Positions 38,335 through 58,588 of a stretch of DNA of 64,000 nucleotides are shown here, in pieces. The notes beneath the pieces are model-generated. The model did no database searches, was not told where the DNA came from, and worked only from the letters and a program-made list of their open reading frames with translations. Position 1 is the stretch's first letter. Each line of letters begins with the position of its first letter. Origin of the DNA: an uncultured Spirochaetota bacterium (GTDB lineage: Bacteria; Spirochaetota; Spirochaetia; SZUA-6; Fen-1364). The DNA is taken from NCBI GenBank assembly GCA_963734545.1, contig CAVTHO010000004.1, forward strand, positions 32,001-96,000, in the 5' to 3' direction. The position numbers and the translations under genes were made by a program.

Positions 38335-38407
38335 TCCCCTGTAGCTCAGTCGGTAGAGCGGGTGACTGTTAATCACTAGGTCGGCGGTTCGAGTCCGTCC
38401 GGGGGAG
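38335..38407 (+). tRNA. tRNA-Asn (GTT), CCA not encoded
   Basis: Acceptor TCCCCTG/CGGGGGA, D arm GCTC..GAGC, anticodon arm GGTGA-CTGTTAA-TCACT, T arm GGCGG-TTCGAGT-CCGTC. Confidence 0.97.
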
Positions 38408-38418
38408 CAGAACTGGAC

Positions 38419-38448
38419 AGGCAGCTTCAACAGAGGCTGCCTTTTTTT
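38419..38448 (+). terminator. Intrinsic terminator after tRNA-Asn
   Basis: AGGCAGC-loop-GCTGCCT plus T tract. Confidence 0.75.
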
Positions 38449-38525
38449 CCCCCCGGAGGGTGTCGAAAACGGCAGGGCTCCGCACCACCTTCCGCCTAAC
38501 CCCCAAGAGTAGTACTATTTGTCCT

Positions 38526-38756
38526 ATGGGCACAACTTCGATTGTTTCCGACCCCGACATCATGATGGGAAAGCCAGTGGTCGCGGGCACCAGGATCACA
38601 GTTGAGTATATTTTGGAGGAACTTGCCCACGGGCAACCGATCGACACCCTCGTGGGCTCTCACCCAACCTTAACGCGCGAGGGTGTACTGGCTGCTCTGG
38701 GGTACGCTGCCAAGGTCCTGCGGCTCGACGTCGTAGACCCTGTAGAAACTCCTTAA
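38526..38756 (+). CDS. DUF433 antitoxin
   Basis: DPDIMMGKPVVAGTRITVE...HPTLT..ALGYAA. Confidence 0.9.
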   Translation: MGTTSIVSDPDIMMGKPVVAGTRITVEYILEELAHGQPIDTLVGSHPTLTREGVLAALGYAAKVLRLDVVDPVETP

Positions 38757-38757
38757 C

Positions 38758-39120
38758 GTGGACCTCGCCTTCCTGGCTGACGAGAACGTTGAGATGGACA
38801 TCGTTGATCGACTCAAGTCACTGGGCCACAGCACGGTACACGCGTCTGAGCTATCCGCCGGTCGTCCCGACACCGCGGTGCTCCAAGCTGCATCTCAGGC
38901 CGGGCAGGTTCTCATTACCAACGACAAGGACTTCGGAGAGCTCGTCTTCCGAAAGCATCATAGCTCCTCCGGAGTCATCCTCGTTCGGTTGCCCGGTCGA
39001 CCTCCCGCCACCAAGGCTCGACTCGTTGCACAGGCTATCCAGCGCTACGGCGAAGAGCTTCTGGGTGCGTTCGTGGTGATTGGACCTCGGACGATTCGGT
39101 TGAGGCGATTGCCGGACTGA
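38758..39120 (+). CDS. DUF5615 PIN-like toxin
   Basis: FLADENV, D..VL, LITNDKDFGEL and GVILVRL motifs; follows DUF433. Confidence 0.9.
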   Translation: MDLAFLADENVEMDIVDRLKSLGHSTVHASELSAGRPDTAVLQAASQAGQVLITNDKDFGELVFRKHHSSSGVILVRLPGRPPATKARLVAQAIQRYGEELLGAFVVIGPRTIRLRRLPD

Positions 39121-39145
39121 GACAGGAGCCCGGAATGGCACGGAC

Positions 39146-39231
39146 TCCTCGATCAGTTGCGGGCGGGACGGTGTTAACCTCCCGGTCGCTGGTTCGAGTC
39201 CGTCCGGGGGAGCGACGGCAGAGTCGAACGG
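39146..39231 (+). repeat. Junction J2: tRNA-Asn 3'-half copy + GCGACGG..GAGTCGAACGG arm
   Basis: 39191-39213 is identical to tRNA 38386-38408 (23 bp); TGTTAA at the anticodon position. Confidence 0.9.
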
Positions 39232-39279
39232 CGTATGGTTTGCTTAACACCAAGCGATGCGCCGTTTCCGTTTTCGGGA

Positions 39280-39468
39280 TTACCCAATCTCCGGTATCGA
39301 CAGGGAGCGGCAGATTTTGCGCGCAAGCTGATTGGCAACCTCGGTGTGTCTGGGAATGGCTTCCGTGGCTCCCGTCCGTGGATTCACCCAAAGCGAATGA
39401 GAACGACCCTCACGTTTGAGGACACAGCCGTGATAGCGGAGGTGTCTCAGGAAGGCCGTCCTCTTCAC
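39280..39468 (-). CDS. hicA: HicA family toxin
   Basis: 62 aa, basic; REGRSH and IPRH motifs. Confidence 0.88.
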   Translation of the reverse strand: MKRTAFLRHLRYHGCVLKREGRSHSLWVNPRTGATEAIPRHTEVANQLARKICRSLSIPEIG

Positions 39469-39695
39469 GAGAGACTGACTACGTCCTGAACAGCGTCAGC
39501 GGGCAGACCGCGCTGAGCGTCCTCCCGCCTGTCTTTCAGGATGAGTGCAATCGCATCGGCGAGATTCTTTTTGCATTCCTCGACTGTCTCACCCTGGCCA
39601 TTCGCCCCGGGGATCTCAGGACAATAGCCGATGTACCACTTCCCGTCACGTTCGATGATTGCGGTGAACTCGTTGTGGAGTGTGTGCTTCGACAT
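39465..39695 (-). CDS. hicB: HicB family antitoxin (short)
   Basis: FTAIIERDGKWYIGYCPEIPGANGQGETVEE; overlaps the hicA start. Confidence 0.9.
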   Translation of the reverse strand: MSKHTLHNEFTAIIERDGKWYIGYCPEIPGANGQGETVEECKKNLADAIALILKDRREDAQRGLPADAVQDVVSLS

Positions 39696-56288: not shown

Positions 56289-56308
56289 GTCGCTTCCGCA
56301 GGCTCCTG

Positions 56309-57220
56309 TCATTGCCGAACGAGCTTGTTCGCCGTCATGACCGCAGATTCCGCGTTGCGGCCGGTCCCGTCGGCTCCGATCTCTTCCCACAGGTCGCGCC
56401 TGGAGTGGAAGGCCTGACCTCCGGCGATCACACGGGTCGCCCTGAGGAAGTCCTTCTCCCTGACGGCGGCGATGAGATCCGCGGCCTCGACGACATTGCT
56501 CGCGGAAGTGACAGAAATGGCCAGGAGGTTCACGGGTCGTGCTGCAAGCACCTCCAGGAGGTGCCTGATCCCCAGGTTCCCGCCAAGGAATTGTACGCTC
56601 CAGCCATCGAGCCTCAGGAAATCCGAGACCATGCGCGGACCGATCAGGTGCGGCTCGCTGGAAACCGCCAGGACGCAGCAGGCAGCCTCGCCGGTTGGTT
56701 CGCGAGGCGCCCCCTCCAGCGAATAGACCCGGGACATGATGCGTTCGGTGGCCTGGCTGATCACGTGCTCTTCGCCCACGGAGAGCTCTCCGTGAGCCCA
56801 CAAACGGCCGACTTCCTTCAGCGCGGGCTCGAGGACCTCGAGGTACGTCCTTCGTATTCCCAGCGCGCCGCGGGAAAGACTCTCAACGAGCTGCGCTGCC
56901 CCATCGTTGTCGCCTTGGCGAACCAGGCCGAGGTACCGCGCGGCATCGCTTGACGCGGAAAGCGGCGGCTCCGGTATCTCTTCGTTTCGCGACGCCCAAT
57001 CCTGCGTCTTGCGCTTCACGTTGCTGCGCCCCATCAGGTAATCCAGCGATACGTCGAAGTACTCGGCAAGCCTGCCCAGCATCGACTCGTCGGGAAATCG
57101 CAGCTTGTTCTCGTAGTTCGCAATCGTGGTCTGGGCGGTGCCGAAGGCGTCAGCCAGGTCCTGCTGCCGGAGTCGCCGCTCTTTCCGCAACTCTCTCAGG
57201 CGCGTCGCGAAGTCAGACAT
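56309..57220 (-). CDS. XRE-HTH + cobalamin-binding (CarH-type) transcriptional regulator
   Basis: N-terminal FATRLRELRKERRLRQQDLA..IANYE..SLDYLMGR; W-x9-EH (WAHGELSVGEEH), ExHxxG (EPHLIG), ISVT and AGG motifs. Confidence 0.88.
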   Translation of the reverse strand: MSDFATRLRELRKERRLRQQDLADAFGTAQTTIANYENKLRFPDESMLGRLAEYFDVSLDYLMGRSNVKRKTQDWASRNEEIPEPPLSASSDAARYLGLVRQGDNDGAAQLVESLSRGALGIRRTYLEVLEPALKEVGRLWAHGELSVGEEHVISQATERIMSRVYSLEGAPREPTGEAACCVLAVSSEPHLIGPRMVSDFLRLDGWSVQFLGGNLGIRHLLEVLAARPVNLLAISVTSASNVVEAADLIAAVREKDFLRATRVIAGGQAFHSRRDLWEEIGADGTGRNAESAVMTANKLVRQ

Positions 57221-57227
57221 AATTCAC

Positions 57228-57281
57228 CACGAATCGTATTCGCACTCCAAAATGATAGCACATCTCGTGCATTCCGGGCAA
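57228..57281 (-). promoter_or_regulatory. Promoter of the XRE-B12 regulator with two operator-like palindromes
   Basis: TTGCCC-18 bp-TATCAT with extended TG on the minus strand; CACGAATCGTA (57228) and CACATCTCGTG (57259). Confidence 0.6.
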
Positions 57282-57419
57282 TACGAAAAACTGCGGCCCC
57301 TCAGCCAGAGAGACCGTTTCTCTCGAACAGGTGTCTGACGGGCGCGTTCGCGTGCATATTTCCGCCGGGCACTCCCCGCGGCGTCCCACCGGCGGGGTCC
57401 CGCGGAGCCCTTGTACGGA

Positions 57420-58166
57420 TCAAAAACGGACGGTGATGCCCGCGGTGGCGTAGTGGAACAGCGCGAAGGTATAGACGTTCCCACCCTCACCGCCGGAGCC
57501 TCCTTCGAGCACCCGATACCCCAGGCGCAGGGCGACCGAATCCGAGAGACGACACTGCAGCGCTGCCAGAACGTCCTCCGCCCGGCCGAAGGGAGTGACG
57601 AGCGCATCCGCGTCAAGGAGGAGGCTCCAGGGCTTTGCAAAACTCCACTCCGCCATCAGGCTCACAAGGGGCACGACGCCGAGGTCGCTGCGGTGAGCAT
57701 AGCCGGCACCGCTCATGAGTGCGATGTCTGCGCTCCGCAGCTTGGCTGTGAGCCCTGCCGCAAGAACGAGGGAATCGTTCTTGACGAATGAGTAGCGGTA
57801 GGTCAACCGGAAGGAATCGAAGCGATAGCTCGACTCGAGCTTTGTGCCTGCGGCGAATGATTGCCCTTGAAAGCTCACCGCGTGATCCAGGACGCCGCTG
57901 CCACCGACCGTCAGCGGGGCAACAAGAAGCATTACCGTATGGCGTTCCGCGAAAGTGTAGCCGCCTCGGACTCTGAACGCGAATGCCGGTGCAGAGACGG
58001 TATCGGTGGCAAGGGAAATCCTGGTCCCGGTGTCGCTCGGTATGCGCACGTCATTGTACCCGGTGAATGCCGCGCCTGTTTCAACTTCCAGGAAACCGTC
58101 GGCATAGAGACCGATCGCCCCCAGCAGGAAAACGCAAAGAGATACTGCTCGGACAAATCCATTCAT
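57420..58166 (-). CDS. Putative small outer-membrane beta-barrel protein
   Basis: Signal peptide MNGFVRAVSLCVFLLGA; amphipathic strands; LGYRVLEGG; ends TAGITVRF. Confidence 0.75.
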   Translation of the reverse strand: MNGFVRAVSLCVFLLGAIGLYADGFLEVETGAAFTGYNDVRIPSDTGTRISLATDTVSAPAFAFRVRGGYTFAERHTVMLLVAPLTVGGSGVLDHAVSFQGQSFAAGTKLESSYRFDSFRLTYRYSFVKNDSLVLAAGLTAKLRSADIALMSGAGYAHRSDLGVVPLVSLMAEWSFAKPWSLLLDADALVTPFGRAEDVLAALQCRLSDSVALRLGYRVLEGGSGGEGGNVYTFALFHYATAGITVRF

Positions 58167-58274
58167 AGTTGTGCTTCTTCTGTTGGGAGCCTGCCGCCCA
58201 TCAGGATGCGGTGGAGGCTCTAGACCTGTCTTGCTAGCCGCAAGTGGCAAAGAAAGCTTGCCGGCAAATTGAAC

Positions 58275-58315
58275 TTCAATTTGTGCTAATATCATAATAT
58301 TCAACACAATTTGTA
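58275..58315 (-). promoter_or_regulatory. AT-rich region with two operator-like sites upstream of the beta-barrel gene
   Basis: TTCAATTTGTG (58275) and CACAATTTGTA (58305). Confidence 0.5.
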
Positions 58316-58537
58316 ATATCAGGACCTCTGCCGCGAAAGTCAAGAACTATCGCAGGCCAGGATGGCGTCCCTGGCAAACATCTTCGACCCGGAGGCCTGA
58401 GTGCTCGTCCTTCCCCTGGCGCCCCCCGGCGCAGAGCGCCTTGAGGAAGTCCTTGTCTCAAACCGAATACCGGCGGCAGCGGGATGACGCCCTCAATCAG
58501 AGCCGGGATTGCCGCGCGCGCGTTTGCTTTCGTTTGA

Positions 58538-58553
58538 TCCGGGGGAGCGAAGA
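58538..58553 (+). repeat. Junction J6: distal att-like copy of the tRNA 3' end
   Basis: TCCGGGGGAGC matches the tRNA end; 15-bp identity with 48234-48248. Confidence 0.7.
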
Positions 58554-58554
58554 A

Positions 58555-58588
58555 GACGGGTCCTGCCCAGAGGCGGGACCCGTTTTTT
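58555..58588 (+). terminator. Strong intrinsic terminator, plausibly the ancestral tRNA-Asn terminator
   Basis: GACGGGTCCTGCC-CAGA-GGCGGGACCCGTT-TTTT immediately after J6. Confidence 0.8.

Follow-up and report, generated by a model that had tools for sequence, protein, structure and literature searches.

Tandem islands downstream of the end of one tRNA-like gene are known from the ssrA locus of Dehalococcoides. There, a large serine recombinase (LSR) of ~540 amino acids (aa), DsiB, is encoded on the reverse strand and adjoins attL, islands without an integration module were interpreted as cis-mobilizable elements gathered by accretion, and the number of islands varies by strain (McMurdie et al. 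2011, PMC3146451, in its accessible part). Here, we analyzed a similar arrangement in a stretch of 64,000 nucleotides (nt) from a peat spirochaete (C4:32001-96000 of a 10-contig, 5.14-Mb genome; referred to as the window), in which a tRNA-Asn gene is followed by five segments bounded by six junctions. The initial annotation, made from the sequence alone, had seen in them an integron-like array of cassettes without an integrase and had named decayed tandem islands as the alternative. It is this alternative that fits best, in view of the LSR gene stubs and the LSR tail found in the junction arms. Probably, five decayed islands have accreted in tandem at the 3' tip of the tRNA-Asn gene, through the action of two LSR families, named here LSR-1 and LSR-2.

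The array resembles the Dehalococcoides islands in its tandem order at one gene end and in the reverse orientation of the recombinase frame next to attL. Furthermore, like the cis-mobilizable and accretion elements cited within the accessible part of the same article, it consists of recombinase-less, att-bounded units stacked at one site. In contrast to the tmRNA gene, the 20-bp direct repeat and the T-loop insertion of Dehalococcoides, the target here is a true tRNA gene with an 8-nt core at its 3' end. Moreover, a recombinase open reading frame (ORF) crossing the site is not described for the Dehalococcoides islands in that part of the article (PMC3146451), whereas here two LSR families share one core. 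With integrons, the array shares an ordered row of site-bounded units beside a fixed anchor. Unlike integrons, it has borders made of recombinase gene remnants and copies of the tRNA 3' end, its units comprise up to nine genes on both strands, and neither IntI nor attI was found. Composite SCCmec islands likewise contain ccr-less pseudo-SCC units, which are att-bounded, lack a recombinase and are stacked at a single site. The architecture is of a known kind, that of stacked decayed islands, and is closest to the Dehalococcoides ssrA islands and the cis-mobilizable elements.

An attP inside the integrase gene is known from IntP/IntX of phage Mx8, where integration creates a new 3' end of the gene (PMC6070905, accessible part), and from SSV-type integrases, where integration splits the gene (PMC7253208, accessible part). 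Those enzymes are tyrosine recombinases, whereas the proteins considered here are LSRs, their new 3' end corresponds to antisense tRNA, and the tRNA contains the stop codon at 55 of the 80 best loci of the survey described below. In the literature, we found no description of LSRs targeting tRNA-Asn or tRNA-Gln or of such a tail swap, which supplements or later catalogues may list. The word tRNA does not occur in the main text of Durrant et al. 2022 as far as accessible (its supplements may list tRNA targets), and the accessible parts of PMC12884075 and PMC12424338 are silent on serine integrases using tRNA genes.

Junctions and arms downstream of tRNA-Asn

The tRNA-Asn(GTT) gene is the only tRNA gene detected in the window by ARAGORN and the only tRNA-Asn gene among the 47 tRNA genes of the genome. 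Its last bases constitute the first junction, J1, with the core GGGGGAGC (38401-38408). At all six junctions, the switch in homology is located at the final 8 nt of the tRNA and not in the anticodon loop or the T loop; the crossover core shared by the junctions is GGG(G/A)AGC. To the left of the core stand arm a (the tRNA 3' end or a copy of it), b or c, and to the right arm h, p or e. LSR-1 denotes the recombinase family with arms h and b, and LSR-2 the family with arms p, e and c (Table 1). All four combinations of one system, a-h, a-p, b-h and b-p, are present in the window. A short core with four arm combinations, following the logic of attL, attR, attP and attB, is a feature of LSR elements. 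A row of att-bounded units at one site, some of them without a recombinase, is a feature of accretion arrays; the window has five units and six junctions and no intact recombinase. A seventh, degenerate junction was detected near 47172-47179.

The similarity between arms is far beyond chance. In addition to the tRNA 3'-end copies, the repeat finder aligned an 85-nt arm (39759-39843 and 47195-47279; 80% identity; BLAST E 6e-14) and the GACGG..GAGTCGAACGG arm (39206-39231 and 47272-47297; 88% identity). The AACTGGACAGGCAG hairpins 3' of 38408 and 39843, recognized by direct reading, were the top terminator-like matches in the scan. J5 and J6 have the 15-mer CCGGGGGAGCGAAGA in common, which occurs in exactly two copies (48234 and 58539; expected 0.01), and two matches were obtained in 0/100 shuffles. 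Only extended arms were counted as evidence, given the abundance of the bare 10-mer core in a genome as GC-rich as this one. The arms occur at only ~5 places in the genome, each of which is a core junction, ruling out a MITE- or REP-like repeat family. The GC content of segments 1-4 is 57-60%, compared to ~64% in the flanks.

Thus, the six junctions, the arm types and the gene contents described previously were all recovered, the latter in agreement with Pfam, and the view that the junctions arose by site-specific recombination at a single core, located at the 3' end of tRNA-Asn, is upheld, as are the shuffled arm combinations, seen both here and in relatives. Of the left arms regarded as tRNA-like, those at 38408, 39213 and 48243 are so; the one at 58548 belongs to the third type, c, which has a homolog on C6. 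The comparison with integrons had to be given up. PF00589 has six matches in the genome, none of them in C4:32001-96000; no attC appeared in the Rfam scan, whose sole match in 37000-60000 was the tRNA and in which no attC model was run; and the segments are not promoterless single genes, comprising 2 to 9 genes on both strands with regulators of their own. An integron is thereby ruled out.

Table 1. Positions of the tRNA anchor, junctions, arms and segment genes in the window
Feature	Position	Strand	Description	Match or assignment
tRNA-Asn(GTT)	38335-38408	+	Anchor	ARAGORN; Rfam RF00005, 68.5 bits
J1	38408		tRNA-h	attL of LSR-1
J2	39213		tRNA half and LSR-2-type arm	attB-type
J3	39843		b-h with stub	attP-type
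J4	47279		b-p	attR-type
J5	48243		tRNA half and LSR-2-type arm	
J6	58548		c-e	attR-type of LSR-2
Arm h1	38402-38479	-	LSR-1 gene 3' stub (..KKAASVEAACPVLLP)	16/19 identical to P0010 residues 485-503, E 3e-9
Arm a2	39163-39213	+	tRNA-Asn 3' half, anticodon loop to 3' end; ends in J2	80% identical to 38358-38408 (repeat finder)
Arm p1	39214-39275	-	LSR-2-type right arm (..TPFDSAVAPP) with hairpin	
Arm b1	39768-39843	-	LSR-1 C-terminal tail LPLLDELRTYCDEHKIEEVPTLLAV, stop 39765-39767; ends in J3	
Arm h2	39844-39947	-	h arm and LSR-1 3' stub (DHIVPAFTPPFDIIHREAQNTKKAASDLPTACPVR)	tblastn E 1.6e-9; hairpin 39854-39880
Extra junction, degenerate	47172-47200		Core-like GGGGGAC, then p'-like ACGGGACCGGCTCGAACAGG, immediately before b2	
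Arm b2	47201-47279	-	Second LSR-1 tail copy, LPLLDELRTYCYEHKIEETPALLAV and stop; ends in J4	
Arm p2	47280-47345	-	LSR-2-type right arm (..SPFDSTVASP) with hairpin	
Arm a3	48193-48243	+	Diverged tRNA-Asn 3' half; ends in J5	67% identical to tRNA 3' part (repeat finder)
Arm e1	48244-48384	-	LSR-2b gene 3' stub (..EEEKKPALAGLIACLLLQEGGVKTALSSVTQKALRSSVFLFAPP)	Hairpin 48266-48295
Arm c	58469-58548	-	P-type arm of LSR-2, tail APPDQTKANARARQSRL and stop; ends in J6	
Arm e2	58549-58595	+	Last right arm: GAAGAAGAC, hairpin and T run	
Segment 1	38460-39120	+	DUF433 (38460-38756), DUF5615/PIN-like (38758-39120)	Pfam E 7.7e-20, 1.4e-22
Segment 2	39280-39758	-	hicA (39280-39468), hicB (39465-39758)	Pfam HicA_toxin E 2.3e-6; UPF0150/HicB-like
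Segment 3	40109-47100	+	Solute-binding protein, two permease ORFs, histidine kinase, AraC-type response regulator, alpha-L-fucosidase	Pfam
Segment 4	47349-48100	-	hicA (47349-47546), hicB (47550-47798), partial DUF433 (47780-48100)	Pfam
Segment 5	48806-58343	-	Photolyase, two unnamed ORFs, LolA-like protein, two FtsX permeases, ABC ATPase, HTH-B12-binding regulator, 307-aa ORF	Pfam

Recombinase gene ends in the arms

Three of the six right arms (h1, h2 and e1) are significant LSR 3' stubs, and every right arm that is testable is such a stub, on the minus strand. The best match of h1, and of h2 together with b1, is P0010, which has 526 aa and comprises Resolvase, Recombinase and zinc-ribbon domains. 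Read in one frame (39768-39947), the h2 stub and b1 are identical to its last 60 aa at 42/60 positions (E 5e-27). Since the stub is contiguous in frame with b1, J3 appears to be an attP-type junction at which the rest of the gene was deleted. Arm e1 is identical at 32/45 positions to residues 476-520 of the 529-aa LSR P0034 (E 3e-18). The translations of p1 and p2 are similar to VRVPFAVAPP, encoded by the p arm at C6:334704. Beyond that p arm, the frame extends into a 91-aa remnant of LSR-2 with 83.5% identity to the 523-aa LSR-2 of the related genome G008. The h and e1 hairpins are the strongest terminator-like sites in the region, and the plus strand of h1 also forms a terminator-like hairpin (38419-38442) for the tRNA; stubs may have survived because their hairpins terminate the tRNA transcript. 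The hairpin of e2 was absent from the calls of the terminator scan. Arm e2 could be either the native tRNA trailer or an older stub, and the synteny downstream of it is not kept in relatives.

The left arm b, recognized previously by the encoded LPLLDELRT over 79 bp, corresponds to the C-terminal tail with which full-length database LSRs of 526-536 aa end. With a 60-aa arm b query, 15 of 16 database matches covered ≥93% of it. Seven of the eight proteins retrieved terminate in LLP(L/R)(L/Q)DELRT(Y/F)(C/Y)YEH.., the full-length ones having 534, 526 and 536 aa, and the eighth ends in an antisense-tRNA tail. Four DNA copies of arm b (two in the window, one on C6 and one in G014) were compared in six pairs, and the codon differences were 42 synonymous versus 18 nonsynonymous. 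Judged by these sequence comparisons, arm b is a genuine coding tail of LSR-1. The claim that the array contains no integrase is therefore correct only for intact recombinase genes: three of its right arms are LSR stubs, and its LPLLDELRT arm is an LSR tail.

Arm c (58469-58547) has a counterpart at C6:334523-334601 (80% identity over 80 nt), and its tail resembles the end of the 527-aa LSR P0026, APPVQQKANGQSLH. In the longer proteins P0022, P0023 and P0028 (628-662 aa), the LSR-2 frame passes a c-like stretch and leads to an HTH and a second Recombinase (PF07508) domain. A copy of this LSR-2 continuation at C6:333881-334495 (minus strand) is frameshifted. The degenerate core with the p'-like unit that precedes b2 is also present after arm c at C6:334601 and after an a-type arm in two contigs of the metagenome run X2. 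A contig of run X1 covers 47165-47365 with zero differences, and this run may be the source sample. Among the a arms, the final 23 nt of a2 are identical to the tRNA, and by direct reading a2 has a TAA within the anticodon loop, in frame with LSR-1, and a3 retains GTTAAC and a self-complementary T stem.

The gene with Resolvase, Recombinase and zinc-ribbon domains, of which the window contains only stubs, is present in relatives and in a 16.3-kb island on C6 (C6:318159-334704). The C6 gene, an LSR-1, is the only serine recombinase of the genome according to the profile search. The borders of this island are an a'-h junction (~318436) and a b-p junction (334704), and its cargo comprises DUF4411, an SNF2/type I R-like protein fused to an S24 peptidase, type I restriction-modification and an excisionase-like HTH protein. 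A recombinase gene ending in the arms, for which the initial annotation had proposed to search, was thus found in the C6 island, and also in G006, G022, G013 and G008. Among these relatives of the same genus and family, G006 has an LSR-1 with 88% identity to that of C6, whose frame passes through h and enters b. The LSR-1 frames of G022 (sister genus), G013 and C6 instead enter tRNA-like arms, the stop codon in G022 being the TAA of the anticodon loop. The LSR-2 frame of G008 crosses a p/e-type arm and extends into the complete tRNA-Asn. LSR-2 homologs are also located beside tRNA-Asn in G026, G033 and G031, which represent three other families of the order.

Further sites related to the arms were noted. 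In another family of the order, a third recombinase with 22-26% identity to LSR-1 lies ~300 bp from tRNA-Asn (G025:C76:36187-37906). At G006:C42, an IS110-like transposase gene splits arm b 22 nt from the core, beside an otherwise intact LSR-1. At C4:570073-570145, 500 kb from the tRNA, a tRNA-like arm with the h hairpin (reading KRKAAGDVPTACPVLLPRPDSNR and a stop) directly follows the TAA of a gene, and 2.4 kb beyond it, a hicA-like stretch is 89% identical to 47478-47557 of the window.

Abutment on tRNA genes extends through the LSR-1 family. In the best 80 genome loci out of at least 589 confirmed relatives, a convergent tRNA was present at the ORF end in 67 cases (Asn, 33; Gln, 28; Glu, 2; His, Cys, Met and Pro, 1 each), while 12 loci had no convergent tRNA and one ORF ran off the contig. 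The stop codon was inside the tRNA in 55 cases, beyond it in 10 and before it in 2. Three of the 12 tRNA-less loci, or their spirochaete counterparts, have tails of one pattern: LLDELRTYCYEHKIEEIPALL in this genus, FLEAFRTFWVAPQPELRVLI in Mesorhizobium and FIKSYRTFCYHPDPDIRFLF in a planctomycete.

As an independent lineage, five Mesorhizobium genomes were searched with the C-terminus of the uninterrupted form. In G041, the LSR ends with ..IWLG followed by NLDSNQD and a stop in tRNA-Gln, and 29 kb away, on the same strand, unrelated sequence leads into WLG followed by FLEAFRTFCRTAPTELREL... Similarly, G043 has an LSR with ..WLG, NLDSNQD and a stop at tRNA-Gln, and unrelated sequence leading into a tail with WLG and FLEAFRTF.. 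38 kb away on the same strand. In G044, a recombinase stub is joined to the tail 56 kb away, an arrangement as in J3, and a bare tail is located at 83 kb. G045 contains the uninterrupted recombinase gene. On the sequence level, these forms match the attL, attR and attP pattern predicted by the model described below, and stub-bearing arrays recur elsewhere.

Proposed history of the array and variability at tRNA-Asn

From these data, we infer the order of events, the crossover point and the role of the LSRs as makers of every junction as follows. In both families, the LSR gene would occupy the edge of the island next to the tRNA, in opposite orientation to it, with its frame spanning the core. 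attP would be within the recombinase gene, h, p and e would be the last codons, and their antisense strand would provide the terminator hairpin of the tRNA. In the excised circle, the same frames would read into b (the LSR-1 tail LPLLDELRTYC..) or c (the LSR-2 continuation). Integration at the last bases of tRNA-Asn would replace the LSR tail by antisense-tRNA codons, giving attL, and would leave the tail stranded at the far end of the island, as attR. By repeated integration beside the tRNA, the newest island would come to lie nearest to it. Excision and re-integration of composite neighbours would shuffle the arm pairs; indeed, composite excision would explain the mixed pairs observed. Later deletions would have reduced all recombinase genes here to stubs, the remainder being cargo and toxin-antitoxin pairs bounded by att junctions.

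Tentatively, this may be extended to a widespread class of tRNA-targeting LSRs with attP in their own 3' coding end, in which integration swaps the C-terminus. The swap would switch directionality or yield an excision factor and would be the equivalent, among serine recombinases, of Mx8 IntP/IntX; we regard this whole extension as possible rather than likely. Such a class, as found here, would include members from Spirochaetota, Alpha- and Gammaproteobacteria, Planctomycetota, Myxococcota, Zixibacteria, Omnitrophota, Armatimonadota and others. In the LSR-1 family, a few antisense-tRNA codons would take the place of a conserved tail (25-30 aa), whose motif is roughly hydrophobic-hydrophobic-x-x-hydrophobic-R-T-(F/Y)-(C/W). 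In the long LSR-2, integration would cut off ~100-140 aa, including the HTH and the second Recombinase domain.

The tRNA-Asn loci of related metagenome-assembled genomes differ in content even between close relatives, as a comparison suggested in the initial annotation revealed. Upstream of the tRNA, synteny is kept in G002, G014, G006 and G008, while the downstream region differs. G014 is collinear to the tRNA end (90%), after which it has ~3.9 kb of different DNA with a c-like arm at its end. The fucosidase segment (91% nt identity) with its b arm comes next and is located, in G014 too, downstream of tRNA-Asn. Counterparts of 38409-39961 and 48244-58548 are missing from G014. In G002, an h-type stub and unrelated content are present at tRNA-Asn, and no LSR-1 was found in this genome (96% complete). 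A further right-arm type, y, follows the tRNA in G006, G011, G012, G013 and G015. Judging from the sequences at this site, this tRNA is a target for no fewer than three recombinase families within the genus. A variant b-h site in G014 (position 53894; all G014 positions refer to reverse-complemented C15 30501-102000) reads GTTCAAT..ATTGAAC versus GTCCAAT..ACTGGAC, with both halves changed. This paired change hints at one protein recognizing both half-sites.

Several observations weigh against the proposed accretion by LSRs, and some of them favour other histories. Profile searches found no intact recombinase gene within the array but only 3' stubs. The p1 and p2 stubs have ~10 codons and e2 has ~6, and these arms are assigned to LSR-2 by resemblance only, being too short for statistics. 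The LSR-1 gene on C6 has three apparent indels in its last ~75 codons, which are either real decay or assembly errors. Ungapped dyad symmetry was 9-11/22 matches at 12/12 junctions, similar to shuffles (mean ~10, maximum 13-15); being no better than shuffles, this test was dropped as support for the attP/attB assignment. The core part of segment 5 (50730-57271) is present at another locus in G009 (C17:40194-46830; 81-87% nt identity) with no arms in 30 kb, so that cargo is not tied to the arms. For classical LSRs, attP and attB are the only recombining pair, and integration beside an occupied site does not take place. Serial integration would need the tRNA together with a foreign arm to be a competent attB. 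Moreover, J2 (attB-type) and J3 (attP-type) stand unrecombined in direct order, 630 bp apart.

The last point also bears on the proposal that the locus is a live, integron-like platform, at which the C6 LSR moves non-autonomous units in trans at the tRNA-Asn core and in any order. The presence of all of a-h, a-p, b-h and b-p would be in line with it, as would the same arm types at the C6 LSR-1 and the small size of two segments (0.6-1 kb). Furthermore, in a comparison with four metagenome runs, all of them consisting of contigs (low likeness threshold of 88; no run with >31% of the sampled words), contigs of other strains or organisms had the joints 47279->39220, 39212->47203, 39212->47216 and 39213->39849, in which b is joined to p1 and an a arm to the p'-b unit (sides 27-42 nt; the joint 39213->39849 is ambiguous, since the final 23 nt of a2 are the same as those of the tRNA). 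These contigs show that further arm pairings exist, but they revealed neither circles nor empty sites of this strain, and stretches without coverage are uninformative. An active LSR-1 should have resolved J2 and J3, if J2 is competent, and the C6 gene carries indels in its 3' part. In addition, each testable right arm is a gene stub, so that the units formerly had a recombinase of their own, and neither IntI nor, in the above Rfam scan, attC was detected. We therefore regard a live platform as rather unlikely.

Arms a2 and a3 start at the anticodon loop, a classical mark of tyrosine-integrase islands, and run to the 3' end as in islands mapped by Islander (PMC4383910, accessible part). They could accordingly be displaced tRNA 3' halves (attR) of tandem tyrosine-integrase islands, with the LSR stubs as passengers. 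In support of this, the y arm of G006 is followed by a 401-aa tyrosine integrase right after tRNA-Asn, the start of which also matches short G011 and G012 contigs, and the same right arm is present in G011, G012, G013 and G015. In the window, however, there is neither a y-type arm nor a PF00589 match, the six genome matches all being elsewhere; homology switches at the last 8 nt of the tRNA at all six junctions; and arms b and c, which have no tRNA origin, end in the same core. We consider this origin of the array unlikely.

Repeated arms could also have been shuffled mainly by homologous recombination or duplication. In G014, the y arm is repeated over >150 bp after both the tRNA and the b arm (positions 11626 and 22932), which resembles the outcome of homologous recombination or circle re-insertion more than that of a simple LSR event; its fucosidase segment and the neighbour look as if they had been re-inserted as one circle or duplicated. 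On C6, ~105 bp left of the core are repeated at 318.4 and 346.4 kb, where a further tRNA-like repeat is located, and a2 appears chimeric between two tRNA-Asn alleles. In contrast, the arm copies of the window are only 67-88% identical over 26-85 nt, which makes them a poor substrate, and homology always breaks exactly at the core. As the main source of shuffling, homologous recombination is thus very improbable, and accretion by LSR-1 and LSR-2 remains our preferred reading.

Cargo and significance

Small genes adjacent to each other match both family models in the HicAB and DUF433/PIN-like toxin-antitoxin cargo, the second DUF433 being partial. DUF433 and DUF5615/PIN-like of segment 1 are a putative toxin-antitoxin pair. 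In segment 4 (47550-48100), hicB and DUF433 look degenerate, their ORFs overlap, and the DUF433 match covers profile positions 1-23/56. The hicBA segment was rejected as a mobile unit with arms of its own, since its 90% identical copy at C6:380157-380508 shares the genes only (39380-39731) and not the arms. For the 307-aa ORF of segment 5 (57420-58343), neither a Pfam family nor a genome paralog was found, and on these grounds it was ruled out as a recombinase. The G009 copy of the operon with LolA, FtsX, ABC and HTH-B12-binding genes lacks the photolyase and the 307-aa ORF.

A stack of decayed islands would explain why toxin-antitoxin pairs and accessory operons are found at this site. The wider result may matter more, namely, that one LSR family abuts a tRNA in 67 of its 80 best loci, across many phyla. 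If this is true, an LSR class is overlooked by island finders requiring a tyrosine integrase beside tRNA genes, and such LSRs would offer natural, conserved tRNA landing sites for genome engineering. Finally, a recombinase gene that would alter its own C-terminus upon integration suggests a testable mechanism of directionality control.

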